A DNA stretch of 64,000 bases, from the IMG/VR virus record IMGVR_UViG_3300033075_001920, one strand, 5' to 3'. This document shows, in pieces, positions 39,993 through 54,507 of this stretch. Position 1 is the first letter of the stretch. Each line of letters opens with the position of its first letter. Origin of the DNA: a virus. Taxonomy: Duplodnaviria; Heunggongvirae; Uroviricota; Caudoviricetes. The position numbers were made by a program, and so were the translations under genes. The notes beneath the pieces were generated by a model. It saw nothing but the letters and a program-made list of their open reading frames with translations. It had not been told where the DNA came from and did no database searches.

Positions 39993-40346
39993 ATGCTACT
40001 AAGCTTTGCTGATAATTCCATCAATATTGACTCTCTAAAAGGCATTATTGCCTCAGAGAAAAAGAACCTCAGGGATGATAGAGATTATTTCAACATCGTC
40101 CATAGTGAAAAACTACAGCTTGAGGATGAAAAATCAAAATTGCTCGACAAGCTTCTGACTACAATGACCAAGATTAAGGAGCTTACAAATGAAATGGTCC
40201 GGATTGACACGCACATGAATAAAACCGTTGAAATGATTGTCAATCGTCAAAAGGACATCGAGCAGCGCAAGCTGGAAAAAGCCCGGCTTAAACAGGAACA
40301 AATGGATGCAGAGCAATCAGAAGCAAACGATACAATAGAAGAATGA
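39993..40346 (+). CDS. coiled-coil protein
   Basis: heptad-rich. Confidence 0.65.
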   Translation: MLLSFADNSINIDSLKGIIASEKKNLRDDRDYFNIVHSEKLQLEDEKSKLLDKLLTTMTKIKELTNEMVRIDTHMNKTVEMIVNRQKDIEQRKLEKARLKQEQMDAEQSEANDTIEE

Positions 40347-41593
40347 TAAGAATACTTGTTTACGCCGACTTTCTGGCTCCTTCCGGGTTTAGCCAGGTGA
40401 CAGAAAATATATTTTCTCGCATGGAACCATTTTTAGAAAAATACAATATAAAAATGGATGTCTTGGCTTACAATCTGCGCTCAACTGAGGATATTGAGTA
40501 TAGCCCGAGAATAAAAGTGCATCACCCTAAAAATTATGCTAAAAACATGTCCGATCCTTTTTATGTGGATGGGTTTTTAAAGTATTTGCAGAAAAAGCCT
40601 TTTGATCTGGTTTGGATAATCAATGACTATCCATTGGTTGCCCCTTTTATTTCTTTGCTCAATGGATTGAAAAAATGGAAGAAGGAACAAAGGGAAAGAA
40701 TATTTAAGATGATGATTTATTTTCCGGTGGACAGCATCATTGCCGGAGATTATCTGGAAGGACTCAAATTCTTTCATAAATCCGTAACATATACCAATTA
40801 CGGAGCCGAGATGATTTTTAATCAGACCAAGGATGCAGACTATACCTACGATTTAAGTATTATTCCGCACGGCATTGATACCGTTAATTTTTTCCGGATG
40901 CCGGACGATCAAAGGCTGGCTTTGAGAGAAAAATACGGACTGCCGAAGGATGTTTACATTTTTGGAACGGTTAATAAGAACGGGCCAAGAAAAGATATCG
41001 GAGGCACCCTGCTAGCCTTCTCGTATTTCAAAAAGAGAAATCCGGATGCCAAAGTAGCTTTGTATCTGCATACCTACCATGCCGATACAACCGGTATAAA
41101 TGTGAAAATGGCGGCAAAGAATCTGAATCTGAAAGAAGGCAAGGATTATTTTCTTCCGGTGGAGGGTAAATACAACAATGCCGATTATACCACTTCAGAT
41201 ATGAATGAGGTATACAACTGTTTTGATTGTTTTGTTTCAACCTCTATGGGAGAAGGATGGGGGCTTACTGTTACCCAGGCAATGGCTACCGAGCTGCCGA
41301 TAGTTTGTGGCGATCACACCTCTCTTTCAGAAATTTGCAACGAAGATCTGTCGCAAGAGAATCGTGCTCAGGCGGTGTACTCAGTTCCAAGTTCCAGATT
41401 GAGCGAAGTTATAGTCCCTAATGAATTTGCTCCCCAGCCAATCAGGTACCGCCTTGATCCGGTAGCCGTGGCCGAACAGATGGAAGAGGCAATGAAAGAT
41501 GGTAATAGAAAAACATACCAGCCCATTATTGACAGATACAACTGGGATGATATTACCAGGGAATGGGAAAAGTTAATTTTGGAAGTTTTATAA
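40343..41593 (+). CDS. GT4-family (GT-B) glycosyltransferase
   Basis: IPHGID, GTVNKNGPRKD, SMGEGWGLTVTQAMA. Confidence 0.9.
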   Translation: MIRILVYADFLAPSGFSQVTENIFSRMEPFLEKYNIKMDVLAYNLRSTEDIEYSPRIKVHHPKNYAKNMSDPFYVDGFLKYLQKKPFDLVWIINDYPLVAPFISLLNGLKKWKKEQRERIFKMMIYFPVDSIIAGDYLEGLKFFHKSVTYTNYGAEMIFNQTKDADYTYDLSIIPHGIDTVNFFRMPDDQRLALREKYGLPKDVYIFGTVNKNGPRKDIGGTLLAFSYFKKRNPDAKVALYLHTYHADTTGINVKMAAKNLNLKEGKDYFLPVEGKYNNADYTTSDMNEVYNCFDCFVSTSMGEGWGLTVTQAMATELPIVCGDHTSLSEICNEDLSQENRAQAVYSVPSSRLSEVIVPNEFAPQPIRYRLDPVAVAEQMEEAMKDGNRKTYQPIIDRYNWDDITREWEKLILEVL

Positions 41594-41600
41594 GAAGAAC

Positions 41601-41912
41601 ATGCCTTTTTTAAAGAATATAAGAATAGACAATATTCAGAATGTTACTGTAATGGTAAACAGTTCTATTGACATCAGGCATGCCATCAGACCGGATGGAC
41701 GAATACATATTTGTTTTGCAGATAGCGATAGCGTTTTGCAAGATACACTTGTGGATTTTCAAGATGGAACAGGGCTTGCTATTTCAGACAAGACCAGTCA
41801 TATAGATTTACTAATTGATACCGATGCCGAACACTTGGACGCATTAATTATAGGTTTATTAAGAATCCGCAATAAAGCCAAGAAGGAAGGTTTAACAAAC
41901 AATCGCCCATGA
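41601..41912 (+). CDS. hypothetical protein
   Basis: ORF. Confidence 0.6.
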   Translation: MPFLKNIRIDNIQNVTVMVNSSIDIRHAIRPDGRIHICFADSDSVLQDTLVDFQDGTGLAISDKTSHIDLLIDTDAEHLDALIIGLLRIRNKAKKEGLTNNRP

Positions 41913-42391
41913 AAATAACATGCCTTCCAAAAGACTATTTCGATGATCTGATGAAATCCAAAAAGATAACAGACCAGAACGTAAACCTACGTTCTGAGTG
42001 CTTTATCAGCATTAATGACTCTTGTGAAACAGACCAAAAACCTTATTTTAAAAACAATGAAAATGTACTTGTACTTTTCTTTGATGATATCGATAAAGAT
42101 TTGTTTGTAAGAAAGGCGGAAGATGGTTCTGAAATATGGCACAGGGCTTTTACACAGCAGCAAGCTGAGCAGGTAATAGAATTCATCAACCGTAATAGAA
42201 ATAAGACCACTTGTGTTATTCATTGCACTGCAGGAGTGAGAAGAAGTGGTACCATTGCAGAATTCATAAACCGGTATTTAAATCTTGCTTGGCCGGAGTT
42301 CAGGGAGGCGAACAGACATATTCAGATAAGACAATCCATAAAAGACACACTACAATCATGTATTCAAAAAGATTCTGGTTTAATAAAATAG
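41909..42391 (+). CDS. protein-tyrosine/dual-specificity phosphatase-like protein
   Basis: HCTAGVRRSG = CX5R P-loop; upstream FFDD. Confidence 0.85.
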   Translation: MKITCLPKDYFDDLMKSKKITDQNVNLRSECFISINDSCETDQKPYFKNNENVLVLFFDDIDKDLFVRKAEDGSEIWHRAFTQQQAEQVIEFINRNRNKTTCVIHCTAGVRRSGTIAEFINRYLNLAWPEFREANRHIQIRQSIKDTLQSCIQKDSGLIK

Positions 42392-42720
42392 GGATACCAG
42401 CAAATCAGACTGAGGTCAGAAGGGTCTTTCAAATAAAAGACAACTTTTTGAGCATCGTTCGAACCGAAGGATCCTTATATTTTCCAAAAGATATTTCAGA
42501 TGTTTCTTTTGGGCTTTGTAAGATAAACATTGTAAAGCCAAACATTGTATTCTACTCAGACCCAATCTGTGGATTTATGATTGAAATGCCGCAGCTCGTG
42601 GATATGCTTAAAAATAAAAATCACGTTGAATATCTTTCCGGACTAACCTGGATATATCAAGCTAATTCAATGATTGATGAATTTACAGTACTAAACCTTA
42701 AGAAAAGAAAAAGGGCATAA
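42211..42720 (+). CDS. hypothetical protein (true start probably internal)
   Basis: ORF overlaps phosphatase gene. Confidence 0.5.
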   Translation: MCYSLHCRSEKKWYHCRIHKPVFKSCLAGVQGGEQTYSDKTIHKRHTTIMYSKRFWFNKIGIPANQTEVRRVFQIKDNFLSIVRTEGSLYFPKDISDVSFGLCKINIVKPNIVFYSDPICGFMIEMPQLVDMLKNKNHVEYLSGLTWIYQANSMIDEFTVLNLKKRKRA

Positions 42721-42777
42721 CATCTCGTTACACCCGCTTTCCAAGATCTGCTCAGGCATACCCTTACAAGGCAAGAA

Positions 42778-42891
42778 TTACTTCTTGAATGCTTTGTAAG
42801 TTAGGGCAGCGAGCATTACCACACTGGCAGTCATAAGCACGTTAGCGCCTCCTAACCAGTTTGGACTTTTAATGTTGAAGAAATCTCCCAT
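42778..42891 (-). CDS. 37-aa single-TM peptide MGDFFNIKSPNWLGGANVLMTASVVMLAALTYKAFKK
   Basis: manual translation. Confidence 0.5.
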   Translation of the reverse strand: MGDFFNIKSPNWLGGANVLMTASVVMLAALTYKAFKK

Positions 42892-43326
42892 AGGAATTTT
42901 ATTTTGATAATAAACTAATTACAAAGTTCTTATAAATAAGGTCATAAATTTCAAGCACTTGCACTTATTTATTAGCTTAAAAAATAATTTTGCTCATTTT
43001 ACCTTGTCGCAGTAAGCATCTTCGAGGATTTATAAAATTAAAAAAAAAAATAAGTGCAAGTCGCATCTTGTAAAATCAACCCCTAAAAAGCTGATTTTTC
43101 ATTATTTTAGAGTATAACCAGCCTCACTTTTTAAATTTCAATTCGCATGAAATAACATAGAAATCACTCCGGATGCCGGCAGGGGCTATAAACACATTAC
43201 CCCACCTTGGGCAAAAGGCAGGGTAACATGTAAATTATGAATACTATCAGGTATCAGGGCAAATGTACGGGAAAGAAAAAAGACCGGCCATATACAGACC
43301 GATCTTTTTTTACACAAATACACAAA

Positions 43327-43401
43327 TGGTTGCGGGGGACGGACTCGAACCGCCGACCTGGGGGTTATGAGCCACCCGAGCTACCGCTGCTCCACCCCGC
43401 G
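43327..43401 (-). tRNA. trnfM: tRNA-fMet (CAT), initiator
   Basis: cloverleaf, C1:A72 mismatch, encoded CCA. Confidence 0.92.
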
Positions 43402-43564
43402 ATAAAATGGAATGTATGGTCAGTCAGCAAAAGCCCACGGACCAAAATGGGGCAAAGTTAAAATCAGCACGAAAACAACTTTCTCATCTTTTACATTCCA
43501 GTGGACAAATATAGAAGAAAAGAAATAATCCTAAAAATATTTTTTCAGATAATAAAAAATCCAT

Positions 43565-43730
43565 TATTTTTGTTTTGTCTATGCGAAAGAGCCCTGCGCC
43601 AAAAGAACCCTCAGCTAAAAGTGAGATACTGTCTCCAAACAGCCTCATCTAGGATAGTATCCTGGATCTGATTGGTCAATTGCAGACCAATTTCACAAAA
43701 GAACCGGTTATGCATGACCGGTTTTTTTTT
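43565..43730 (+). ncRNA. putative small RNA with own promoter and terminator
   Basis: TATTTTTG at 43565; serial hairpins; terminator aaccggtt..gaccggtt plus T-run. Confidence 0.55.
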
Positions 43731-44007
43731 ATTCCGGAATATGAACAATAGTCCATCCGTCTGGTTCTGTAAACTTATGCTTCACACAATAAGTCATCGC
43801 TTTGCCATAGGTTTTTAAATTCATTGCCAACTGGGTATTAAGTGTAGTGGTATGGTCTTTCATAAGGTATTCTAAGGTAGTTTTATTCTGTATTAGATAA
43901 ATTCCTTCGGAAGTAAAGATTTTGTGCATCCTACGAATGGAAGATGCATCATCCCTTGAAAAAAATAGTTGTCTCATATAATAAATACGACGGAGCGTGA
44001 CATTCAA
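43729..44007 (-). CDS. hypothetical protein
   Basis: ORF between tRNAs. Confidence 0.55.
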   Translation of the reverse strand: MNVTLRRIYYMRQLFFSRDDASSIRRMHKIFTSEGIYLIQNKTTLEYLMKDHTTTLNTQLAMNLKTYGKAMTYCVKHKFTEPDGWTIVHIPE

Positions 44008-44141
44008 TTACATTAATCGAAATTAACAATTAACAAAACAAGGGTATAAGGCAAAGACTGCCAGTGCTGTATGTCTGCAAATACCATCTTCACATTTAAC
44101 AAATGATTTGCACAAAATTGTGCAAATTTTATAGAAACTTT

Positions 44142-44215
44142 GTCTCCCGAAGAGGAGTCGAACCTCTAATTGCAGGGTCGTAACCTACTGGTTTGTCCAT
44201 TAGCCTACCGAGAGA
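44142..44215 (-). tRNA. trnR: tRNA-Arg (ACG)
   Basis: cloverleaf, loop TTACGAC. Confidence 0.88.
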
Positions 44216-44220
44216 AATTT

Positions 44221-44293
44221 GGGTGTAACACCGGATTCGAACCGATACCAGCTGATTCACAGTCAGCCCGCCTGCCATTAGCGTAGAAACACC
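44221..44293 (-). tRNA. trnH: tRNA-His (GTG)
   Basis: loop CTGTGAA, G-1 present. Confidence 0.9.
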
Positions 44294-44302
44294 ATATATT
44301 TT

Positions 44303-44376
44303 GTACTCCCCAAAGGATTTGAACCTCTATTTCCAGAATCAAAGTCTAGCGTCCTGCCAGTTAGACGAGAGGAGTA
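44303..44376 (-). tRNA. trnQ: tRNA-Gln (TTG)
   Basis: loop CTTTGAT. Confidence 0.88.
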
Positions 44377-44424
44377 TGTAATTACTACTAATCTGTATTA
44401 AAATTAGTAGTAACTCACCATTTG

Positions 44425-44510
44425 AGCCACTTGTAGGATTTGAACCCACGATGAACTTTCGTTTTCTGCTTACAAGGCAGGTGCAATCGACCAGGCTATG
44501 CGAAAGTGGC
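44425..44510 (-). tRNA. trnT: tRNA-Thr (TGT) with long variable arm
   Basis: loop CTTGTAA; variable arm AAC-GAAA-GTT. Confidence 0.85.
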
Positions 44511-44524
44511 ATTTTAAAGAACTG

Positions 44525-44596
44525 TGGAAATGACTGGAATCGAACCAGTCCGCACGGATTTTCAGTCCGCTGCTCTACCAACTGAGCTACATCTCC
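44525..44596 (-). tRNA. trnF: tRNA-Phe (GAA)
   Basis: loop CTGAAAA. Confidence 0.92.
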
Positions 44597-44602
44597 ATTT
44601 TG

Positions 44603-44675
44603 AGCCTAGTACTGGATTTGAACCAGTGTACACATGATTTTGCAGACCATGACCTAACCACTCGGACAACTAGGC
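44603..44675 (-). tRNA. trnC: tRNA-Cys (GCA)
   Basis: loop CTGCAAA. Confidence 0.9.
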
Positions 44676-44682
44676 TTTTATT

Positions 44683-44762
44683 TGCGGTTCAGTCTCCCTC
44701 CTAATTAGAAGTTGTAGGCGTGCACTAACGCCTCGTTATTCGGACATTTCCTACGCTGAACC
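44683..44762 (-). ncRNA. tRNA-sized structured element of unclear type
   Basis: closing stem GGTTCAG/CTGAACC, inner AGGCGT/ACGCCT hairpin. Confidence 0.4.
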
Positions 44763-44837
44763 TAGAGGGGGTGGCTTGCCGTTAGCCGATTGCCGTTTTC
44801 ACAGTTTACAGGATTCGAACCCGCATTTCCCCCAACG
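44763..44837 (-). ncRNA. circularly permuted tRNA-like element Y (opened at anticodon loop)
   Basis: 3' half (GGGGG-AAAT-T arm-acceptor), GAAA, then 5' half (acceptor-TC-D arm-CCCCC). Confidence 0.7.
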
Positions 44838-44913
44838 TGGCATAAGCAGGATTCGAACCTGCGCATTCCTGCTCCCAAAGCAGGTCGGAAAAACCGGACT
44901 TCCGTATTACGCC
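44838..44913 (-). tRNA. trnP: tRNA-Pro (TGG)
   Basis: loop TTTGGGA. Confidence 0.88.
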
Positions 44914-44933
44914 ATTTTTTTATATGTAAGAAC

Positions 44934-45010
44934 TCATAAGAGCATCGTCCTTCCATTAAACGATCACCCATTAAACGGGTGAGCCGGGGTTGAACCGACA
45001 TAATGCCTCG
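44934..45010 (-). ncRNA. circularly permuted tRNA-like element X (opened at anticodon loop)
   Basis: GGCAT-TAT-T arm-TCACCC, loop, GGGTGA-TC-D arm-G-ATGCT. Confidence 0.7.
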
Positions 45011-45085
45011 TACTCGGTGCGGGGATCGAACCCGCTGCAACAGGATGAAAACCTGCCGTTTTAACCTACCGTGAACTAACCGAGC
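45011..45085 (-). tRNA. trnE: tRNA-Glu (TTC)
   Basis: loop TTTTCAT. Confidence 0.88.
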
Positions 45086-45087
45086 AT

Positions 45088-45116
45088 AAAAAAACCCTGA
45101 TTGTTAGTCAGGGTTT
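45088..45116 (-). terminator. attenuator terminator of leftward tRNA operon
   Basis: AAAACCCTGA-ctaacaa-TCAGGGTTTT plus T-run immediately before tRNA-Glu. Confidence 0.85.
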
Positions 45117-45143
45117 TAAAATATCGTAGTATTTTCAATTATC

Positions 45144-45224
45144 TCACGACACAATAAACCCTGATTCGCATGTAAAACATGGGAATTGCTCGGGGGTGTG
45201 TCGCTGAATAAGATTTAAAATCAC
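45144..45224 (-). CDS. leader peptide 1: MILNLIQRHTPEQFPCFTCESGFIVS (GTG start)
   Basis: codons 7-20 use only Q,R,H,T,P,E,F,C, the amino acids of the downstream tRNAs. Confidence 0.85.
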   Translation of the reverse strand: MILNLIQRHTPEQFPCFTCESGFIVS

Positions 45225-45333
45225 GTTGCAATTATAAAGAAAAAAATAGAATAAACAAATTAATATTTTTGGAATGGGAAAATATAAACCAATACCTTTA
45301 GAGAATATGAAATATTACAGTTTTTGCGAGACT

Positions 45334-45522
45334 GTTGTATATGCCTTTCAAATTGAGGTTATTCACAACATGAATCGCAGATAGAAGTTGTAAAAGCCAT
45401 TAGTGATAACTGGGCTGTGTTGTAAGGCATTATTTCCTGATTCATCGGCTTCGCAAGGAAGACTCCACAGGCGCATCGCGGGTACACTCCCGCTGAAATC
45501 AGAGAACTGATGTGCAAATATA
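45334..45522 (-). ncRNA. TnpB/Cas12f-like guide-RNA scaffold copy B with mini-array
   Basis: promoter TATATTTG; scaffold to 45387; spacer 45354-45386; repeat ATTTGAAAGGCATATACAAC 45334-45353. Confidence 0.8.
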
Positions 45523-45563
45523 GGAAAATTCTTGAATTCTGTTAGTAATTTAGAAAAAAATAT

Positions 45564-45571
45564 TATATTTG
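45564..45571 (+). promoter_or_regulatory. -7 promoter element of Leu/Ser/Tyr tRNA operon
   Basis: TATATTTG. Confidence 0.75.
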
Positions 45572-45579
45572 CACTCCCG

Positions 45580-45642
45580 ATGAGACAACAATTATCACTC
45601 AGTTATTCGTACCTATCAGCCTTTGCTGATCAGCTCGGATAA
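45580..45642 (+). CDS. leader peptide 2: MRQQLSLSYSYLSAFADQLG
   Basis: codons 5-13 use only L,S,Y, the amino acids of the downstream tRNAs. Confidence 0.88.
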   Translation: MRQQLSLSYSYLSAFADQLG

Positions 45643-45667
45643 CCTATGTGATTAAAATCTTGCATAG

Positions 45668-45695
45668 AAACCCCGGCTGAAAAGTCGGGGTTTTT
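45668..45695 (+). terminator. attenuator terminator of Leu/Ser/Tyr operon
   Basis: AAACCCCGGCT-GAAA-AGTCGGGGTTTTT. Confidence 0.85.
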
Positions 45696-45705
45696 GTGTT
45701 TATAT

Positions 45706-45779
45706 ACCCCTTTAGCCCAACGGAAGGAGGCGCGTGCCTTAGGAGCATGACAGTATCGGTTCGAATCCGATAGGGGGTA
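45706..45779 (+). tRNA. trnL: tRNA-Leu (TAG), short variable loop
   Basis: loop CTTAGGA, A73, 5-nt variable region. Confidence 0.8.
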
Positions 45780-45815
45780 CAAAAAAAAGTACACTGTACA
45801 AAAAGTGTACAAAAT

Positions 45816-45889
45816 GCACCCGTAGTCCAACGGCAGGAGACGAAGAGTTTAAGCCTCTGACAGTGTGGGTTCGAATCCCTCCGGGTGTA
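45816..45889 (+). tRNA. trnL: tRNA-Leu (TAA), short variable loop
   Basis: loop TTTAAGC, A73, 5-nt variable region. Confidence 0.78.
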
Positions 45890-45894
45890 CAAAT

Positions 45895-45985
45895 GGAAAG
45901 TGAAGCAGCTGCATTGGAGCGGCGATCAGTCTTGAAAACTGAGTCAGGTTTTGCCTGTGGGGATCGGGTCCTCCTCTTTCCGCCA
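45895..45985 (+). tRNA. trnS: tRNA-Ser (TGA), atypical T-loop
   Basis: loop CTTGAAA, long variable arm, G73, CCA. Confidence 0.82.
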
Positions 45986-45990
45986 GTTAT

Positions 45991-46079
45991 GGAAGATAGT
46001 CAGATATGGCTCGCTGAGTCTGTTTGCTAAACAGATCTGCTTTAAAGGAGCAGTGAGGGTTCGAATCCCTTGTCTTCCG
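45991..46079 (+). tRNA. trnS: tRNA-Ser (GCT)
   Basis: loop TTGCTAA, long variable arm. Confidence 0.88.
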
Positions 46080-46087
46080 CTAAATAT

Positions 46088-46173
46088 GGGTGTGCTGTCG
46101 CGATTGGTGGAGCGGCGCCGGTCTGTAAAATCGGTACTTTGATACGCTGTGGGTTCGAATCCTACCACACCCT
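46088..46173 (+). tRNA. trnY: tRNA-Tyr (GTA)
   Basis: loop CTGTAAA, long variable arm. Confidence 0.88.
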
Positions 46174-46214
46174 CTAAATAAACATAAATATACAAAAGTG
46201 TGTATATTTACATT

Positions 46215-46820
46215 TTAATGTATGTTTGGCAGTATATTCAACTCCGAGTATTCCTTTCCGAAATTTTCAATCGCAGCTTGATTATATGCCATTGCAGCAT
46301 CTTCCTCGTTTATAAAATAACCCAGATGCTTTTTAACGTAATCTAATTTTATATAAGCAGCCCATTTTTTTGCAAAATTACTCCAGCTAACTCCCTTGTA
46401 AACACTGGATGGCTCATCGCCGTTTGCTGTTTTGGGTTTCTTCTCCTTGTAATGTGCTTTACGATGATCAATGATTTCAATATTGTCTCGTCTTAAATTG
46501 AGCGGGTTTTTATCCTTATAATGGATAATAGATTTACCTTCAATATCCATCATTAATTTTGCTACCGGCGCAACAACCCTCTTACCTTGTTTTGAAATCC
46601 ACAATGCCATTACTATACCCCTCTTTTTATCAAAGAAGATTGCCTGCTGTCTTAAAATTTCATAATCTAAATCATCAAATTCAATGATTTTACCGCAGGT
46701 TGTTTTGACCCATCTGAATTGATTCGCAAATATCCGCATTGCTTTTATTGCATCATTTTTTGAGATATTTTCGGTTTTCTTTCCAAAAATGTCGTGCAAT
46801 ATTTCAATTTCGGTTTTCAT
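46215..46820 (-). CDS. HNH-AP2 homing-endonuclease-like protein
   Basis: IHYKDKNPLNLRRDNI (degenerate HNH) plus SSVYKGVSW...HLGYF..EEDAAMAYNQAA AP2 domain. Confidence 0.85.
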   Translation of the reverse strand: MKTEIEILHDIFGKKTENISKNDAIKAMRIFANQFRWVKTTCGKIIEFDDLDYEILRQQAIFFDKKRGIVMALWISKQGKRVVAPVAKLMMDIEGKSIIHYKDKNPLNLRRDNIEIIDHRKAHYKEKKPKTANGDEPSSVYKGVSWSNFAKKWAAYIKLDYVKKHLGYFINEEDAAMAYNQAAIENFGKEYSELNILPNIH

Positions 46821-47073
46821 CTGTTTTGCAAAGTAAATCTATTTAAAATAAATTGTTGTTATTGTTTAGTTTGAAAATGTCGAACTTTAAAATGTTTTCC
46901 GGAATAAGGGTTTATGAAAGAGCAAATACTATATGTTACTGAGGCGGGAGTTCTTATGTTAAATGTATGTGATATTGTTTACGGAATACAATATTTTGAG
47001 TATGAAACGCTGCAAAACCAAGTTTATTGGCTGCATTGTCCTGTTTGGTTTTATGATAGATATAATTAAATCT

Positions 47074-47265
47074 AAACCGAGAACTATAAAAATATTAGTA
47101 GTGTCTCAGTTTGAAATTTTAGACCGTTTGGTTTTTTATATCCTTACAAATTTACCGTACAAGAAAGAACTATGTATTTAATATTCATCTTTTTATAAGT
47201 GTATGGTTTTTTTGTATCCTTACAAATAACCATACACATAGGTCAAACCGAGAACTATAAAAATA
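47074..47265. repeat. AT-rich non-coding region with nested direct repeats
   Basis: AAACCGAGAACTATAAAAATA at 47074 and 47245; TATCCTTACAAAT at 47139 and 47215. Confidence 0.85.
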
Positions 47266-47294
47266 ATTTTAATTTATTTTCCCGGTTTTTTGTG

Positions 47295-47427
47295 TACATT
47301 TGCCTTGTTCTTTGAACCCAGCGGGAGTGTACCCGCGATGCGCCTGTGGAGTCTTCCTTGCGAAGCCGATGAATCAGGAAATAATGCCTTACAACACCGC
47401 CCAGTTATTACTAAAGGCTTTTACAAC
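47295..47427 (+). ncRNA. TnpB/Cas12f-like guide-RNA scaffold copy A
   Basis: promoter TACATTTG; 109 nt nearly identical to reverse complement of 45387-45495. Confidence 0.8.
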
Positions 47428-47530
47428 TAGTACGAAATTGTCGATTTCTTTAGTTTGAAAGGTATTTACAACTCGTATGAGTATCATAAATTTGAAAGGC
47501 AATACAACATTCCCTCCAGCTCACATCTTT
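47411..47530 (+). CRISPR. minimal CRISPR-like array with short repeats
   Basis: CTAAAGGCTTTTACAAC / GTTTGAAAGGTATTTACAAC (47453-72) / ATTTGAAAGGCAATACAAC (47490-508) separated by unique 25- and 17-nt spacers. Confidence 0.65.
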
Positions 47531-47558
47531 CCGTTATGCACCTAGTTGTAAAACTTAA

Positions 47559-50474
47559 GTGGATAATACGCATTTATCCATTTTAGCTTTGCCGAACCAT
47601 ATGAAAAATATATTTTTAATGCTGTTCTGCCTTTTGTCTCAGATCAGCTTCGGACAAACTCCGACCGACACCATCTATCTGAATGGGAAGACAAAAACGA
47701 CATTCAGCCTTGGCAAAACAATACCATTTTATTACATCGATTGCATTCAGTTCACAACAAGAACCACTTCCAGATCTATTTCGGGAGTTGGAACAGTAGT
47801 TTTTAAATCCGATGGCTCAGGCTACATTACGCCTTCATCAGCCGCTTATACTGCCAAATGGGATTACTATGTTTCAAATTGTGGATATGAAAAAAGGCAT
47901 CTTTTTTTTATGCAGAAGCCTACCATCCCGCCCCCGCCGGCCAATAAAGTACCTATACCAATATCAGATGCTTATACGATAGATCAAGATGCTACACTTT
48001 CTGAAAATATACTTATCAATGATTCAGATCCGGATTCAGATCCAATAACAGTTGCCTCATTTGCAATAAACGGAATTATTTATTCTCCCGGCACTCAGGT
48101 TATCCCATCGGTTGGAACTATAACCATTTTATCTTCCGGAGCACTATCTTTTTTAAATGCCGCAGGTATAACAGGAGATATTCCTATTATCAGTTATCTT
48201 ATCAAAGACAGTAAAGGAGCGCAAGCTGCATCATCTGTTTTAATTTCTGTAAAATCCAAACCGACCCTTCCGCCCAATACATTTGTTCTGGATAAAACAT
48301 CTACTACTTCAGCAGGAGTATACATCGGCAATAAACTAATCAGAACCCTTTGGAACAATGTTTCTAAACCGGCAGGCACTTATACCGTATCCTGGGATGG
48401 AAAAGACGATGCAGGGAACACAGCTCCTCCGGGAGGAAAAATAGCAGTTCTTTACCATCAGATGACCTACCAGTGGAAGGCAAGTATTGGAAATTCTTCC
48501 AGAGTGGATACAGGTTCTCATAAGCTCAGAGGGTTACGCACCCCGTTTGCTGGAGTTGAGGCTGGTGGCTACATTTATATATGTAAAGGTAACACAGAAG
48601 GTAACAGCCCGATATTCAAAATAGCCAAGTCGGATCCTCAATATATGTATTCTCTCCGTGAATCAGGTTGTGGGGATTGCGATATGCAAACTGAGTTTGT
48701 AGCCTCGGATGGTAATTTGGTTTATTGGGCAGGTTATGACGCTTGGACCGGTTACTGGCCTGTTACCAATAAAGTTCCACCGGATACCAATTCAAGAGTA
48801 AAGTCGATTATCTATGCGACCAAGGTAAGCGATGATCAGGATTATACATTTCCATCCGGAAAAAAGACAAAAGCTTCCCTTGCGGCATGTAATACATATT
48901 CCGGCATTGGTATAGTGCTGGACGATGACCTTGCCCGCCCTACGGGTCTTGCTGTCATGTCCACGGGGAATTATCTGTATTCTACCCATCTGGGCAAGTC
49001 GTGGGTTAGGTGCTATAATAAGACTACCGGTTCGCTGATAAGAACAATGGTCAATACTTTATCCAATATTGCAATCGATGGCAATTATCTGTATGGAATA
49101 AGCGGATCAACCATTAAAAAATATGCAATTAATTCAGATGGCACCCTGACAGATCAGAATGTAAATATTGCCATGCAAAGTCCTTTAAATATCTCTGTAA
49201 AAAATGGCACAATCATGGTCATAGAGGCAGCAACACAGCAGGTCTTAGCATACAATACCTCGGGTGTACTTCAATGGACTCTTGGTCAAAGCGGAGGATA
49301 TAAATCTAACCCTTATGTCAGCGCAGACAGGTTTAACTTCATAGAATTTAATAGAGATGAAAAAAAAGGATTTATTATACCTCAGGCAGATGGTTCGTTT
49401 TGGGTAGGAGATGCAGGCAATTGCAGAACTATCCATTTTGCAGCCGACAGAACGTATATTGAAAATGTAGCATATCTTCCTACCAATTATAATTGTGGAG
49501 TTGATCAGAATGCCCCTACAAGGGTATTTGCCGGATTTTTAGAATACGATGGACCTACCGGAACACTGGTAGCTAATTGGAGCGCAAACCTAACAGCCAA
49601 CTACAATTACATTGATAATCGTGCAATTTTTTCAAGCATACAAACCATATTAGGCAGAACCTATGGATTGATACTTTATTATCCAAATCCACCTTCTTCT
49701 GAAAATGTCGCTCAGGAATTAGTAGAACTTACATCCACGGGAATCAGGTTTACCGGCATTCGAAGGAATAATGACAATCGCTATGTATTTGACAAAAACG
49801 GCGATTTGCTGCATCCGGAAAGCGATTACTACGCATTATCGGGCACCGGAAAAATCATCCGGGAAAGATTTACAGGAATTAATACTTCAGGTAATCCTAC
49901 CTTTTCAGCTCCGGAAACCTTGTACACCTTTCCACTTGGTAAAAATTATCCTTCCTATGCTTCTTTGAACTATGGCACTAATGCCAAAGGAATTGTATTT
50001 TCGGATCATTATAATAATACCGGTTATCACTTAGGACGCATTGAAAACGGACAATGGATATGGATGACATGCAAATCTACTTCCAGAAACTATACTGGGG
50101 ATATGCCTACGGATGGCACCTTTGATTGCGGGAATGGAACACAGTATGCAGGATGGAATCTTTATAACATAGATTCATTTTTTGTCTGGTCTTTTCATGG
50201 AGAATTTTGGAAAAACTCTCAAACCAATATATGGAATCTGTTTCATGAGGATGGTTTAATGCTTATGCAGCTGGGTAAAACCGGTCCGCAGGCAGACATC
50301 TATAATGGAGGACATGATGCACCCAGGGAAGCTGCTGGAAACATGCTTGGAGGCCAGATTGTTAAAATCGGAAACGATTACTGGATCTTCTATTGCGATG
50401 AATCCAGACATGGTGCTATACATTACTTTAGGATATCCGGGGCAAACACGGTAAAAATAATTTATTTAAAATAA
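47559..50474 (+). CDS. secreted multidomain protein (signal peptide, Big/cadherin-like Ig, FlgD-Ig, beta-propeller); start likely 47601
   Basis: MKNIFLMLFCLLSQISFGQ; SDAYTIDQD..NILINDSDPD; LIRTL..YTVSWDGKDDAG. Confidence 0.82.
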   Translation: MDNTHLSILALPNHMKNIFLMLFCLLSQISFGQTPTDTIYLNGKTKTTFSLGKTIPFYYIDCIQFTTRTTSRSISGVGTVVFKSDGSGYITPSSAAYTAKWDYYVSNCGYEKRHLFFMQKPTIPPPPANKVPIPISDAYTIDQDATLSENILINDSDPDSDPITVASFAINGIIYSPGTQVIPSVGTITILSSGALSFLNAAGITGDIPIISYLIKDSKGAQAASSVLISVKSKPTLPPNTFVLDKTSTTSAGVYIGNKLIRTLWNNVSKPAGTYTVSWDGKDDAGNTAPPGGKIAVLYHQMTYQWKASIGNSSRVDTGSHKLRGLRTPFAGVEAGGYIYICKGNTEGNSPIFKIAKSDPQYMYSLRESGCGDCDMQTEFVASDGNLVYWAGYDAWTGYWPVTNKVPPDTNSRVKSIIYATKVSDDQDYTFPSGKKTKASLAACNTYSGIGIVLDDDLARPTGLAVMSTGNYLYSTHLGKSWVRCYNKTTGSLIRTMVNTLSNIAIDGNYLYGISGSTIKKYAINSDGTLTDQNVNIAMQSPLNISVKNGTIMVIEAATQQVLAYNTSGVLQWTLGQSGGYKSNPYVSADRFNFIEFNRDEKKGFIIPQADGSFWVGDAGNCRTIHFAADRTYIENVAYLPTNYNCGVDQNAPTRVFAGFLEYDGPTGTLVANWSANLTANYNYIDNRAIFSSIQTILGRTYGLILYYPNPPSSENVAQELVELTSTGIRFTGIRRNNDNRYVFDKNGDLLHPESDYYALSGTGKIIRERFTGINTSGNPTFSAPETLYTFPLGKNYPSYASLNYGTNAKGIVFSDHYNNTGYHLGRIENGQWIWMTCKSTSRNYTGDMPTDGTFDCGNGTQYAGWNLYNIDSFFVWSFHGEFWKNSQTNIWNLFHEDGLMLMQLGKTGPQADIYNGGHDAPREAAGNMLGGQIVKIGNDYWIFYCDESRHGAIHYFRISGANTVKIIYLK

Positions 50475-50514
50475 TTTTGTTATTTCAATAATAGTAATTA
50501 TAATTGCAGTGCAA

Positions 50515-50601
50515 ATGAGCAAAAACGTCAATATAGCCGGCATGAATAAAGATTGGAGAGGAATTCTTCACTCAGGGGCTCTATTGCGCACAATGATATA
50601 A
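50515..50601 (+). CDS. leader peptide 3: MSKNVNIAGMNKDWRGILHSGALLRTMI
   Basis: codons 3-17 use only K,N,V,I,A,G,M,D,W,R, the amino acids of the downstream tRNAs. Confidence 0.85.
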   Translation: MSKNVNIAGMNKDWRGILHSGALLRTMI

Positions 50602-50625
50602 AACCGTTCGGAAACGCGCCAAGAA

Positions 50626-50655
50626 AAGCCCCAGAGAAATCTGGGGTTTTTTTTT
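50626..50655 (+). terminator. attenuator terminator of third tRNA operon
   Basis: AAGCCCCAGA-GAAA-TCTGGGGTTTTTTTTT. Confidence 0.88.
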
Positions 50656-50692
50656 GCACTTATGTTCTTTGACATTTAAATAGTTTCATTAC

Positions 50693-50765
50693 GGGCCCGA
50701 AGCCAACGGCAGGCCGGCTGCTTTGCAAGCAGATCGTTTGGGTTCAACTCCCACGGTGTCCACCA
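50693..50765 (+). tRNA. trnA: tRNA-Ala (TGC)
   Basis: loop TTTGCAA, G3:U70, CCA. Confidence 0.85.
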
Positions 50766-50857
50766 GTTGGCTCATTTTTGAGCCAGTTAGTGTCTCAAAA
50801 ATCATTGATTATGAGACGCAATGTAGTTTTGTGGCTCATTTTTGAGCCACAAAACAG

Positions 50858-50968
50858 GTAGTGGGTCGATCACCGGATATATCCATTCTTATGGTAAATG
50901 CTAGGTTCGAATCCTGCCGGCGGGTTGCCCTCTAAAATTGGAAGGGGAACCCGCCGTAGACTCACTAC
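50858..50968 (+). ncRNA. circularly permuted tRNA-like element Z (opened at D-loop)
   Basis: 10-bp GTAGTGGGTC/GACTCACTAC stem; TTCGAAT T-loop; CGGCGGG..CCCGCCG-TA acceptor. Confidence 0.6.
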
Positions 50969-50976
50969 TTTTTTAC

Positions 50977-51052
50977 TCTCCTTTAGTTCAGTCCGGCTAG
51001 AACATCCCACTTTTAATGGGTAAGGTCACTGGTTCAAATCCAGTAGGGAGAA
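50977..51052 (+). tRNA. trnK: tRNA-Lys (TTT)
   Basis: loop CTTTTAA. Confidence 0.9.
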
Positions 51053-51058
51053 CAATAA

Positions 51059-51133
51059 GCAGATCTAGCTCAATTTGGACAGAGCAACGGCCTTCTAATC
51101 CGTAGGTTTGGGGTTCGAATCCCTGGTTCTGCA
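51059..51133 (+). tRNA. trnR: tRNA-Arg (TCT)
   Basis: loop CTTCTAA. Confidence 0.85.
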
Positions 51134-51144
51134 CAAGCAAATAT

Positions 51145-51215
51145 ACGTCTGTGGTGTAATGGTAGCATAAGTGATTCCAAACCATTTGATGGCAGTTCGA
51201 ATCTGTCCGGGCGTG
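51145..51215 (+). tRNA. trnW: tRNA-Trp (CCA)
   Basis: loop TTCCAAA. Confidence 0.85.
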
Positions 51216-51271
51216 CAAATTTAGTTCATTTATGAAAAAGACTAAATTTAGTGTTACAGCTAAATTTCTAT

Positions 51272-51346
51272 AGAAGTATGGCCAAGTTGGTAAAGGCATC
51301 TCACTGATAATGAGAAAATGCGGAGGTTCAAATCCTTCTACTTCTA
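51272..51346 (+). tRNA. trnI: tRNA-Ile (GAT)
   Basis: loop CTGATAA. Confidence 0.9.
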
Positions 51347-51355
51347 CAAATATAT

Positions 51356-51427
51356 TGCGGGGTGGAGTAGCGGTAGCTTGCTGGGCTCATAACCCAAAGG
51401 TCGCGGGTTCGAATCCCGCTCCCGCAA
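51356..51427 (+). tRNA. trnM: tRNA-Met (CAT), initiator-like body
   Basis: three G-C pairs in anticodon stem; U1:A72. Confidence 0.85.
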
Positions 51428-51431
51428 CATC

Positions 51432-51502
51432 AAGATTGGGTGGCGTGAATAACCAATAAGCGCGACATGTGCACCCAGCGCATGCTAATGACATCCAATC
51501 TT
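51432..51502 (+). ncRNA. unidentified structured RNA between tRNAs
   Basis: closing stem AAGATTGG/CCAATCTT. Confidence 0.35.
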
Positions 51503-51509
51503 TATTCAT

Positions 51510-51582
51510 GCACGATATAGCTCAATTGGCTAGAGTATCTGACTTCCAATCAGAGGGTGCGGTTCGAATCCGATATTGTGCT
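51510..51582 (+). tRNA. trnG: tRNA-Gly (TCC)
   Basis: loop CTTCCAA. Confidence 0.9.
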
Positions 51583-51629
51583 CGTAGAGGCGAGAAGCCG
51601 CAGTTAAAGTTCTGCTTAAAAACTTACAT

Positions 51630-51705
51630 TCTCTGGTAGCTCAGCCTGGTTTAGAGCAAATCCCTTACAAGGATAAGGTCGTTGGTTCGAATCCAACCCG
51701 GAGAA
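51630..51705 (+). tRNA. trnV: tRNA-Val (TAC)
   Basis: loop CTTACAA. Confidence 0.88.
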
Positions 51706-51715
51706 CAAGATTATT

Positions 51716-51791
51716 GGACCTTTAGCTCAGTCTGGTTAGTAGCAACTCACTCATAATGAGAAGGCCGGTGGTTCAAATCCATCAGGGTCCA
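51716..51791 (+). tRNA. tRNA (CAT): Ile2 (lysidine) or elongator Met
   Basis: loop CTCATAA; ATA codon in leader peptide 3 favours Ile2. Confidence 0.8.
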
Positions 51792-51859
51792 CAACATGCA
51801 TAAAAAATCACTGTTTTCTGTACATGTTTAAGTTATATGCACTGATTTTGTGCATTTAT

Positions 51860-51945
51860 TGTGCCTTGACCGAGTGGCCGATGGTAGCAGACTGTTAATC
51901 TGCCGGGAGTAATCCCCATCGTAGGTTCGAATCCTACAGGTACAG
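51860..51945 (+). tRNA. trnN: tRNA-Asn (GTT) with long variable arm
   Basis: loop CTGTTAA; variable arm GGGA-GTAA-TCCC. Confidence 0.85.
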
Positions 51946-51954
51946 CAAATAATA

Positions 51955-52032
51955 CGGTTCTATAGGGGAGTCCGGCCGTCCCCGTCTGCCTGTCACGCAG
52001 AAGACCACGGATTCGAATTCCGTTAGAACCGC
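51955..52032 (+). tRNA. trnD: tRNA-Asp (GTC)
   Basis: loop CTGTCAC. Confidence 0.85.
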
Positions 52033-52034
52033 AA

Positions 52035-52162
52035 AGGTCATTGTGTATAAAAAGACGAGTGCTGATCAGCAGATTTTTGGAGTCCAATCCCAAAAATTAC
52101 ATACGTGAGGTAGACAAGATTCCCGATGCAATATCCGTTAATGCTGATTTGCACAATGACCT
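52035..52162 (+). ncRNA. putative 128-nt structured RNA at end of tRNA operon
   Basis: 12-bp closing stem AGGTCATTGTGT/GCACAATGACCT. Confidence 0.5.
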
Positions 52163-52424
52163 GGCAAAAAAAAACCTTTTAAGCCAAATAAGGATAGGCT
52201 GAACTTCTATTATTTTCCAATTCTTCCTTAGACCTGACTTTAAAATTGAAAAGAGGCGCATTAGGTTTGATAAACAATATGAATGCCATATCACCGGCAA
52301 CTACATAAGCTGCAGTGGAATTATGTGTTACAATTTCTTTCATATTATTTTCAAAGGTCTTTAATTTTTAGCTTTTTTTCAAAAATAAAAAAGCGGAAGC
52401 ACTTTAAAATACTTCCGCCCCTTA

Positions 52425-52751
52425 GGTGGAGCTGGGGGGCTTCGAACCCCCGTCCGGTCGCAGGAACCCTTACATATTTATAGTAATAGAGAGATTAAGA
52501 CCTCACAAACCATGATGGGTATTTTGAATTTCTTTCAAAATTCTGTGCAAATAGTCGCTTGCATCAATTTTGCGGATTTGTGACACCGCGGTTTCACCTT
52601 AGGCGGCAAGCTTAACGCTGGCGGGCTGAGGACGGAAAGCAATCACTTTGCAGTTTTTGTCTTTTGTTTTATGAATGTTGTTTTAGCAGTGCAAACAAAC
52701 TGCTACTAAATGTAAGAACTCATATCTACCCCGTCAATTCCAGTCAACCCC
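52425..52751 (-). ncRNA. ssrA: tmRNA
   Basis: 5' GGGGTTGACTGGAATTGAC; 3' GGTTCGAAG..CAGCTCCACC with G3:U70; tag ...KNCKVIAFRPQPASVKLAA*; promoter TATCTTTG at 52756-63. Confidence 0.92.
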
Positions 52752-52852
52752 GCTTCAAAGATAAAATAGCACTTGCACTTATGCAAATCCAAAAGTTTGT
52801 TTCTTTGTTTTTTCAATTTATTTTTGTAAAGGATATAAAACCAACGTAATCC

Positions 52853-53377
52853 GTGCAAAAAACATTAAATCAGAGATATGGTCACCTTCTGGGCACATCT
52901 CCTCTGACAGATATACTTGATAATAAGGTAGTTGAAACATCTGCCATGTTTGAAGTAGGAGGATCTGTTCAGGGTAAAGGAGTCAATCCCTCGGATGGTA
53001 AAAGAGGAGGGTATTTTAAGGGTCGATCGCACAGGGAAGGTGGAATTAAGGCATACAATGTTACCACCGGTCAGCCAATCGAAGTGGAAGGCGATGAAGT
53101 AATCATTACCAAACCAGCAGTATTGGACGAAACAAAAAGAGAATTTGAGGGAGAGATGCTCACTAATAAAGAAATTCTTTCCCGGATAAACGAAGGTGGA
53201 GGCGGAGTAAAGTTCGAAGATGGCGGAGAAATTGAAAGATGCGCATGCGGCGGAAAAACTTACAAATATGGCGGAGAAGTTCTTGAAGACAGTATAATTA
53301 TTTCAAGACTTGAAAGAGATTACCAGGAACGGGAAATCAGCCGTGCCTACAAACAATTTTTAAGTAAAATACGATAA
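52853..53377 (+). CDS. hypothetical protein with GRSHREGGI/EVEGDE motif and FEDGG/YKYGG motifs
   Basis: ORF. Confidence 0.75.
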   Translation: MQKTLNQRYGHLLGTSPLTDILDNKVVETSAMFEVGGSVQGKGVNPSDGKRGGYFKGRSHREGGIKAYNVTTGQPIEVEGDEVIITKPAVLDETKREFEGEMLTNKEILSRINEGGGGVKFEDGGEIERCACGGKTYKYGGEVLEDSIIISRLERDYQEREISRAYKQFLSKIR

Positions 53378-54507
53378 TGGCAAAAGAAAAAGGCAAAATA
53401 AGCTTTAAGGCATGGGGAGTAGACTTTGTTGATATTCCATACATGAAAGGTGACTACTGGGAAAAACAACCGGAAAGAATATATCTTGGTGTAGCCGGCA
53501 CTGCCGCTATGGTTCGCCAGTTTCTAAAAGCTTTGTATCCAGGAGTAAAATTTTGGGTAAAGTCTGAGAGTTATTCAATGGGAAATTCTATCAATGCTTA
53601 TAGCTGGGGTTTTCCTGAGAATGAAGAAGCTGCCAGAGTAATAGATCGAGAACTCTCTGCTAAATTTCAAGAAGGCCATTTCAATAGCATGGAAGATATT
53701 TATGAGTATGGTAAAATGGAAGAGATTAAAACCGATGATGGTAGGACTATTGACTATGGCACTAAGTATATGCATTATTATACCAAACCGCCATACGGCT
53801 CTCCAGAATACAATTTACCACCACCGGATTATAGCAAGATAGGAAACACAAAAAAAGAAGTTCCCCGTGGAACAGGATCAGGCAAAAAATGGAAAAAGTT
53901 TGAGAAAAAGCCTGACGTAATCAAAGACAGTGGAGATTATAAACTCTTAGTCAAGCTCACAACAGGTTGGGAATTGTTTTACAAGGAAGAACCTTCCGGT
54001 GATGTTGAAATGGTTTTCAAATTCAATTATTCAGTTGGAAAGGCAGTTTACGACAAAGAGAAGTGGTCTAAATTAAAAAGCCTATTGGAATCAACAGGAT
54101 TAATCTGGTCGCTTCGCTTAAAAGGATTTTTCCTTTCGCAAGACAGAGGCGGTGTTCAGTCCTTGGTTGTAAATAAGCAGTATGCAATAGAACAATTGCT
54201 GGATGCGGCTTCCGGAATAGCATGGCCTTACGTGGACAATCTTTTTGCTGAAAATGGATATAAGAGAGTTTTAGATCAGGCTGTGGTCAACTATGATGTT
54301 ACTGACGGGAAACTTCAAATATTAAGTGAAGGTAAAATACAGCCCCAGCCAGATCCTGAACCCGTTCCGGCACCAACACCCAAACTTTCAGGAAAAGAAG
54401 AAATCGCTCAAATGATAAAATCGCTTTACACGCTCAATAAGCTATCGCCGAGCGATGAAATTACTAAAAAAATAAAAGCCCTCGAAACTTTACAAAAATA
54501 CTCATGA
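53377..54507 (+). CDS. LPD29 (large polyvalent protein-associated) domain protein
   Basis: VRQFLKALYPGVKFWVKSESYSMGNSI...FNSMEDIYEY. Confidence 0.75.
   Translation: MAKEKGKISFKAWGVDFVDIPYMKGDYWEKQPERIYLGVAGTAAMVRQFLKALYPGVKFWVKSESYSMGNSINAYSWGFPENEEAARVIDRELSAKFQEGHFNSMEDIYEYGKMEEIKTDDGRTIDYGTKYMHYYTKPPYGSPEYNLPPPDYSKIGNTKKEVPRGTGSGKKWKKFEKKPDVIKDSGDYKLLVKLTTGWELFYKEEPSGDVEMVFKFNYSVGKAVYDKEKWSKLKSLLESTGLIWSLRLKGFFLSQDRGGVQSLVVNKQYAIEQLLDAASGIAWPYVDNLFAENGYKRVLDQAVVNYDVTDGKLQILSEGKIQPQPDPEPVPAPTPKLSGKEEIAQMIKSLYTLNKLSPSDEITKKIKALETLQKYS

Follow-up and report, generated by a model that had tools for sequence, protein, structure and literature searches.

Leader open reading frames matched to the tRNA clusters behind them: candidate ribosome-mediated attenuators in a tailed-phage genome

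How does a phage that carries its own transfer RNA (tRNA) genes set the level at which they are transcribed? tRNA genes are generally held to be growth-rate-controlled at the promoter, and the arrays found in phages are generally held to be passive supplements to codon usage or decoys against tRNA-cutting defences. Another possibility is raised by a stretch of 64,000 nucleotides (nt) from a tailed phage (Caudoviricetes; IMG/VR record IMGVR_UViG_3300033075_001920), the whole of which is referred to here as the window. Three tRNA clusters of this DNA are each preceded by a short open reading frame (ORF) and an intrinsic terminator, and each ORF contains an unbroken run of codons for the amino acids of the cluster that it precedes. 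Judged from sequence and modelling, it is quite probable that the three elements act as transcription attenuators of the ribosome-mediated (leader-peptide) kind and place the tRNA clusters under decoding-speed feedback. Each tRNA set would then probably be made only when ribosomes read its codons slowly.

Between 43.3 and 52.8 kb, the window holds 23 tRNA genes and a transfer-messenger RNA (tmRNA) gene, as called by ARAGORN and Rfam. At a 90% ARAGORN threshold, the whole 64 kb yields two further tRNAs, Ser(tga) at 45902-45981 and Ala(tgc) at 50693-50765, both of which sit within the arrays and fall below the default ARAGORN and Rfam thresholds; the Ala candidate carries a G3:U70 pair. Strand switches and protein genes delimit three clusters, at 45085-44142 (minus strand), 45706-46174 and 50693-52032, and a lone initiator-like tRNA-Met lies outside them at 43401-43327. 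An earlier, sequence-only reading of this DNA had described one layout for all three units, namely a promoter-like element, a leader of 20-28 amino acids, a terminator and then the first tRNA, and that order was found in each of them at the places it had given, with leader ORFs of 26, 20 and 28 codons. The features of the three units are as follows.

45229-45259, minus strand: promoter-like element of unit 1, with -33 TTTG (45259-45256), a 19-nt spacer and -7 box TATAATTG (45236-45229)
45144-45224, minus strand: leader ORF 1, GTG start, 26 codons plus stop
45165-45206, minus strand: control run 1, QRHTPEQFPCFTCE, 14 codons
45156-45164, minus strand: anti-terminator strand 1, TCAGGGTTT, fully complementary to the 5′ arm of the terminator and abutting the run
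45086-45117, minus strand: intrinsic terminator 1 (hairpin 45117-45091), 10-base-pair (bp) stem, 7-nt loop, T tract touching tRNA-Glu
44142-45085, minus strand: tRNA cluster 1, Glu, Pro, Cys, Phe, Thr, Gln, His, Arg(acg)
45542-45571, plus strand: promoter-like element of unit 2, -7 box TATATTTG (45564-45571) 8 nt before the ATG, with a weaker -33-like TTAG
45580-45642, plus strand: leader ORF 2, 20 codons plus stop
45592-45618, plus strand: control run 2, LSLSYSYLS, 9 codons
45630-45638, plus strand: anti-terminator strand 2, pairing with the terminator's 5′ arm and loop with one bulge, 11 nt past the run
45669-45700, plus strand: intrinsic terminator 2 (hairpin 45669-45692), 10-bp stem, GAAA loop, T tract
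45706-46174, plus strand: tRNA cluster 2, Leu(tag), Leu(taa), Ser(tga) (45902-45981, sub-threshold), Ser(gct), Tyr
50476-50506, plus strand: promoter-like element of unit 3, with -33 TTTG, a 19-nt spacer and -7 box TATAATTG 8 nt before the ATG
50515-50601, plus strand: leader ORF 3, 28 codons plus stop
50521-50565, plus strand: control run 3, KNVNIAGMNKDWRGI, 15 codons
50571-50580, plus strand: anti-terminator strand 3, 9-bp pairing to the 5′ arm of the terminator with a single A-A mismatch, 5 nt past the run
50625-50659, plus strand: intrinsic terminator 3 (hairpin 50625-50650), 11-bp stem, GAAA loop, 9 T
50693-52032, plus strand: tRNA cluster 3, Ala(tgc), Lys, Arg(tct), Trp, Ile(gat), Met, Gly, Val, Met, Asn, Asp

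In every unit the leader ORF starts 4-8 nt 3′ of a -7-like TAnn(T/A)TTG box, and in units 1 and 3 a TTTG lies 19 nt further upstream, a geometry that we take to be that of the Bacteroidota -7/-33 promoter consensus. Because the ORFs begin so close behind these boxes, the messenger RNAs (mRNAs) are probably leaderless or near-leaderless, the former being probable for unit 1, where only 4 nt separate the box from the GTG. The terminators combine GC-rich stems of 10-11 bp with T tracts and lie 23-26 nt past the leader stop codon, with 6-43 nt left between them and the first tRNA.

The central observation is the correspondence between runs and clusters. Each run draws solely on the amino acids of its own cluster and covers them fully (8/8, 3/3 and 10/10 in units 1 to 3), and the three runs jointly represent all 20 amino acids. 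The restriction of each run to its own cluster and the joint coverage of all 20 had been read from the sequence beforehand. Of the 940 short ORFs in the window, none of the other 937 attains run lengths of 14, 9 or 15 codons. When a leader is scored against the two clusters that are not its own, the longest runs are of at most 3 codons. The chance of such matches was assessed with composition-preserving shuffles of the 170-nt upstream region of each unit, read in three frames over 200,000 trials. The observed run was reached in 3, 50 and 142 of the 200,000 shuffles for units 1, 2 and 3, respectively, giving P = 1.5e-5, 2.5e-4 and 7e-4. The sequence-only estimates of about 1e-5 to 1e-6 for each unit were therefore overstated by one to two orders of magnitude, but the joint chance of the three units, ~3e-12, is tiny all the same. 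The anatomy of the units and its non-randomness are established.

The correspondence extends to isoacceptors. Among the informative Arg, Leu and Ser codons of the window's runs, 8/9 can be read by an anticodon of the unit's own cluster; for example, the Arg codon of run 1 is CGA, readable by Arg-ACG, while that of run 3 is AGA, readable by Arg-UCU. The Leu and Ser codons of leader 2 track the cluster anticodons UAA, UAG, UGA and GCU, and eight of the nine codons of run 2 are readable by the cluster's own anticodons under strict wobble. Across 12 units of several phages, the count is 37 of 40 informative Arg/Leu/Ser/Ile codons, with 23.3 expected (P=1e-7), and in these units ATA occurs with a cluster Ile-UAU, and ATT or ATC with a cluster Ile-GAU. 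Run 3 contains an ATA codon, which implies that one of the two CAT tRNAs of cluster 3 would be a lysidine-type Ile tRNA. Run 1, in turn, uses 14 distinct codons in its 14 positions (P=0.018), with six amino acids each represented by two synonymous codons.

Could leader translation influence the terminator? In folds of the bare leader RNAs, the terminator is intact and the segment behind the run is sequestered by the run sequence itself, in a 1:2 / 3:4 topology. In all three units, the best partner for the terminator's 5′ arm anywhere in the leader is this post-run segment, at codons 17-24, with the following predicted duplex energies and p values against dinucleotide shuffles.

Unit 1, 5′-arm duplex: -13.7 kcal/mol, p=0.004
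Unit 2, 5′-arm duplex: -12.9 kcal/mol, p=0.01
Unit 3, 5′-arm duplex: -16.2 kcal/mol, p=0.01

The complementary segment had earlier been placed directly after each run; the complementarity is present in all three units, but the segment abuts the run only in unit 1 and follows it at 11 nt in unit 2 and 5 nt in unit 3. Over the 16 best units, the gap from stop codon to terminator is 16-29 nt and the anti-terminator partner begins at the run end. The effect of a ribosome was modelled by masking its footprint codon by codon, both in equilibrium folds and in a co-transcriptional snapshot taken before the 3′ arm of the terminator exists. In unit 1 the switch is predicted to operate at equilibrium, with a terminator probability of 0.04-0.4 while the A site is at codons 3-11. 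In the modelled snapshot, the 5′ arm is pre-paired with P ~0.7-0.9 when the A site lies in the run and with P 0-0.2 once the ribosome has moved past it, a flip that appears in 3/3 units of the window and in 2/3 units of Cellulophaga phage phi4:1, described below.

Taken as an attenuator, each unit would operate as follows. Transcription would begin at a promoter of Bacteroidota type that lies only a few bases ahead of the leader start, and a ribosome would load immediately. Fast decoding of the whole run would bring the ribosome over the post-run segment, which could then no longer pair with the terminator's 5′ arm; the terminator hairpin would form 23-26 nt past the stop codon, and RNA polymerase would halt before the first tRNA. 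If any charged tRNA of the set were scarce, the ribosome would stall in the run, the free segment would pair with the emerging 5′ arm and the whole cluster would be transcribed, with RNase P taking the leader off afterwards. Scarcity of any one tRNA species of the cluster would thus suffice, which would make the run an OR gate over the whole set, and the new tRNAs would shut their own synthesis down again. Translation of the leader, its coupling to transcription, the direction of the switch and the rise in read-through upon stalling are what we infer here. Classical attenuation logic, applied to tRNA genes by means of a multi-codon census, is nonetheless strongly supported as the likely mechanism by the sequence analysis and modelling together. 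The attenuator interpretation put forward in the sequence-only reading passed each computational test made of it and is supported by the codon/tRNA match, the constant geometry, the modelled ribosome switch and the co-variation among other genomes that is set out next.

Do leaders elsewhere change when the tRNAs behind them change? Phages related through the backbone of the genome are of little help on this point. Protein searches with 54504-56063 and 52853-53377 led to relatives with zero to three tRNAs and no arrays (10 viral loci, some on the same contigs, and 52 metagenome loci); the backbone relatives are freshwater phages of 41-84 kb, the nearest having 52-70% identity for the 174-amino-acid and AAA_5 proteins (40343-57379 versus L001-L070). 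Because such relatives lack tRNA arrays, the tRNA/tmRNA module, 9 kb in all, has the look of an island that was acquired as a whole. The neighbouring proteins of 971 and 376 amino acids had no relatives among the viral contigs, a degenerate DNA pattern for leader peptide 3 had no match in the viral contigs, and megablast of the region against GenBank phages returned two tiny matches only.

A search by tRNA similarity led to Cellulophaga phage phi4:1 (NC_021788, L015), a cultured phage of Bacteroidota with three units behind TAnnTTTG boxes.

phi4:1 unit A: leader run QRLHLQELEQP; tRNAs Pro, Glu, Gln, His, Leu, Leu, Arg(acg)
phi4:1 unit B: leader run TKTGITVIDKTKGARA; tRNAs Ala, Lys, Ile, Gly, Met, Asp, Thr, Val, Arg(tct), Met
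phi4:1 unit C: leader run NYC-T-YNNSNWSFSY; tRNAs Tyr, Ser, Ser, Asn, Trp, Phe, Cys-like tRNA

The 20 amino acids are divided otherwise in phi4:1 than in the window, and the leaders match the division found there, down to the Arg codons, which are CGT in one unit and AGA in another. Phage phi17:2 is almost identical to phi4:1, and its sole leader substitution is synonymous (n=1). The tRNAs and leaders of phi4:1 also bear on its annotation. Its gp075 and gp076 (L015 6513-6632 and 8641-8742), annotated as hypothetical proteins, are probably mis-annotations, gp075 being the unit B leader as read from a TTG further upstream, within the promoter, and gp076 overlapping an unannotated tRNA-Ser(tga). 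A 'pseudo' tRNA at L015 9377-9450 has a GCA (Cys) anticodon.

An unbiased sample was drawn from 119 viral loci chosen only by three consecutive tRNA T-loops. Terminators at most 70 nt upstream of a tRNA with at least 110 nt of free space were collected, and the best run of in-set codons within 170 nt upstream was scored and ranked against the scores given by the tRNA sets of all other units. The unit's own tRNA set ranked first in 11 of the 30 evaluable viral units, with ~1 expected. For example, one newly found viral unit has a 19-codon run of T/N/V/I/C before tRNAs Asn, Asn, Ile, Val, Val, Cys, Cys, Thr, Thr, and in another a 16-codon run covers all eight amino acids of its cluster. Two further units, L089 and L111, are homologous, with a common promoter, Shine-Dalgarno sequence, ORF 3′ end and terminator; L089 has the run SIIGWPS with tRNAs Trp, Pro, Gly, Ser, Met, Ile, and L111 has PIYWYPI with Trp, Ile, Tyr, Pro. 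Leaders thus co-vary with the tRNA content of their operons in phi4:1, in the L089/L111 pair and in the 11/30 sampled units, the kind of relationship for which a search of related phages had been proposed at the outset; the refuting outcome named there, terminators kept while the codon/tRNA match is lost, was not what these units showed.

The same arrangement is met in cellular genomes, where a pattern scan found terminator-preceded array starts at 7 of 168, compared with 42 of 431 in viral loci. At a chromosomal Bacteroidota locus adjoining xseA, the leader run YCSSSYCY stands before Cys, Ser and Tyr tRNAs. Four more genomes of the same taxonomic order have an L/S/C/Y-rich leader, a terminator and then tRNAs Leu, Leu, Ser, Cys, Tyr, Ser; among these four, Cys was not called in one, one locus is incomplete and one unit lies inside a contig of >1.17 Mb. 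No Rfam family covers the leaders of these cellular loci (L244/L310-L313, L317), where the only matches were to tRNA and tmRNA, together with sub-threshold noise. The design is therefore not phage-specific, and because it also precedes chromosomal Bacteroidota tRNA operons, general tRNA homeostasis is favoured over a purely anti-defence role.

Several findings weigh against reading the units as attenuators. Six run codons (ACC, CCC, CTC, GTC, GCC, GGC) require four-way wobble by U34 tRNAs or else host tRNAs. Set 3 is complete only with an Ala tRNA that is below standard thresholds, and without Ala, run 3 splits into stretches of 5 and 9 codons. Unit 1 relies on the GTG start of an mRNA that is probably leaderless. 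In the equilibrium models, units 2 and 3 keep their terminator wherever the ribosome stands (terminator probability ~0.9-0.99), bar one codon in unit 2, and their switch must therefore be kinetic; in the trp attenuator, too, the terminator is the more stable helix and a kinetic switch is accepted. The anti-terminator of unit 3 is predicted to re-form with the ribosome at the stop codon. Finally, phage phiCbK has the layout three times, with an amino-acid match that is only partial.

Competing explanations differ from the attenuator reading in purpose, in sign or in sensor. One of them keeps the attenuators and has them selected as a counter-defence alarm that detects anticodon nucleases (PrrC, RloC, PARIS, retron or VapC-type toxins) and makes replacement tRNAs, as the sequence-only reading had supposed. 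By its logic alone, the circuit would answer tRNA cleavage, in that the loss of any decodable tRNA would stall the leader ribosome, and the lack of arrays in backbone relatives, with the module as an acquired island, also fits an alarm. Nevertheless, all 20 amino acids are sensed and not merely the few that are known nuclease targets, no defence or anti-defence gene is linked to the units, and the same design stands before chromosomal Leu/Ser/Cys/Tyr operons beside housekeeping genes, with no phage defence involved. The proposed tie to host defences gained no support here, was weakened by these chromosomal operons and is considered unlikely. Even less probable is a translated leader that acts on the terminator with the opposite or some other logic, such that translation licenses read-through, or stabilises or processes the precursor, in a feed-forward manner. 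The codon/tRNA match alone leaves the sign of the response unfixed, and the modelled behaviour of unit 3 at its stop codon would suit such a scheme; however, a stop codon 16-29 nt before the terminator is too distant for a terminating ribosome to block the hairpin, and the segment that sequesters the 5′ arm lies inside the 3′ part of the ORF, where a translating ribosome would cover it, as in the classical trp/his arrangement.

It is also conceivable that the runs act as RNA, the codon string pairing directly with the anticodons of the cluster to which it is complementary, in the manner of a T-box-like sensor with multiple specifiers. Yet each run sits within a single open frame, whose start codon comes just behind the promoter and whose stop keeps a fixed distance to the terminator, and the single leader substitution between phi4:1 and phi17:2 is synonymous (n=1). 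No RF00230 (T-box) or other cis-regulatory match was obtained at E<=1 over 42500-53500, and neither a Stem-I-like platform nor an acceptor-binding bulge is evident, all of which makes direct pairing very improbable. Short AT-rich ORFs could, of course, resemble tRNA sets by accident, and the single-unit P values of units 2 and 3 are modest; given the joint P of ~3e-12, the full coverage of each set, the codon-level match and the recurrence with co-variation in unrelated phages and cellular genomes, accident is a negligible explanation. Returning to ribosome-mediated attenuation, it seems likely that the units represent an undescribed general class of control, in which the tRNA operons of many large phages and of some Bacteroidota chromosomes would be transcribed on demand through a translated codon census, isoacceptor by isoacceptor.

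Is anything of this kind known? No published description of leader-peptide control of tRNA genes was found in full-text searches of the literature, and none of the curated Rfam leader families (Trp, His, Leu, Thr leaders, Bacteroid-trp and others) matches the window, where only tRNA and tmRNA matches and sub-threshold noise were returned; the literature and Rfam 15 thereby agree with the sequence-only reading, which had known of no such case. A Phe-codon leader at the tRNA-Phe genes of E. coli was considered as a precedent and not borne out at pheV, where the promoter abuts the tRNA.

The nearest analogues are the attenuators of enterobacteria, including ilvGMEDA (Ile/Leu/Val), thr (Thr/Ile), trpL, hisL, pheL and leuL. 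Like the units of the window, these have a short ORF of regulatory codons followed by a terminator, an anti-terminator that overlaps the 3′ end of the ORF, stalling that favours read-through and, in some, several amino acids per leader. Unlike them, the units would regulate tRNAs and not biosynthetic enzymes, and their runs would sense up to 10 amino acids through one to four codons each, in place of long runs of the same codon. They also differ in that their codons match specific isoacceptors, their mRNAs are probably near-leaderless with Bacteroidota-type promoters, and no Rfam leader family covers them. Attenuators of aminoacyl-tRNA synthetase genes, namely the pheST leader pheM, the Streptomyces leuS leader and the cysS uORFC-8-2 motif (Brewer et al. 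2021, PMC8632094), are alike in that a leader ORF senses charged tRNA and the gene restores decoding, but each controls the charging enzyme for one amino acid, whereas the window units would control tRNA genes for whole sets of amino acids.

T-box riboswitches likewise control a terminator and anti-terminator by the state of a specific tRNA and through a codon-anticodon match, but they bind uncharged tRNA via one specifier codon and no ribosome, whereas the sensor in the window is predicted to be a translated ORF. In mycobacteria, leaderless polycysteine short ORFs are reported to be Cys-responsive attenuators (bioRxiv 10.1101/834739). These resemble the window units in being leaderless short ORFs at the 5′ end of an operon that act as amino-acid-responsive attenuators, and differ in sensing a single amino acid, in preceding protein-coding genes and in belonging to another phylum.

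If the attenuator reading is right, isoacceptor-resolved feedback from decoding speed to tRNA transcription would constitute a new layer of translational homeostasis. It would account for the many tiny 'hypothetical' ORFs and the terminators within phage tRNA arrays, and it would predict tRNA identities, such as that of the CAT tRNA in the window proposed above to be a lysidine-type Ile tRNA. The units would, moreover, provide small natural sensors of the supply of whichever codon set is chosen. As phage phi4:1 and its host are both cultured, the idea is directly testable.

Further observations were made around the individual units. Cluster 2 comprises exactly the tRNAs with a long variable arm (class II), Leu, Ser and Tyr, and the cellular counterparts group the same set together with Cys. 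A recent capture of operon 2 from the cellular Leu/Ser/Tyr operons was considered and rejected, as the DNA similarity between them is confined to tRNA fragments. A near-identical inverted repeat of ~110 nt, at 45387-45495 and 47319-47427, flanks cluster 2 together with an ORF of 201 amino acids on the minus strand (46215-46820), which had no Pfam match. In unit 3, the hairpin GGCTCATTTTTGAGCC occurs twice in the 211-nt gap between tRNA-Ala and tRNA-Lys (50766-50976), along with a tRNA-like T-arm that lacks a full cloverleaf. Directly after cluster 3, at 52425-52751 on the minus strand, lies the phage-encoded tmRNA (Rfam, 61 bits), and the placement of a ribosome-rescue RNA next to stalling-based sensors may be more than coincidence. 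Finally, a candidate fourth unit occupies 43327-43513 on the minus strand, where the start-stop 'ATG TAA' (43496-43491) comes 9 nt after a TATATTTG box and precedes a 7-codon ORF (43487-43464) and a weak hairpin with CTTTTG (43451-43434). It ends in the lone initiator-like tRNA-Met, which has a C1xA72 mismatch and closely resembles E. coli tRNA-fMet.

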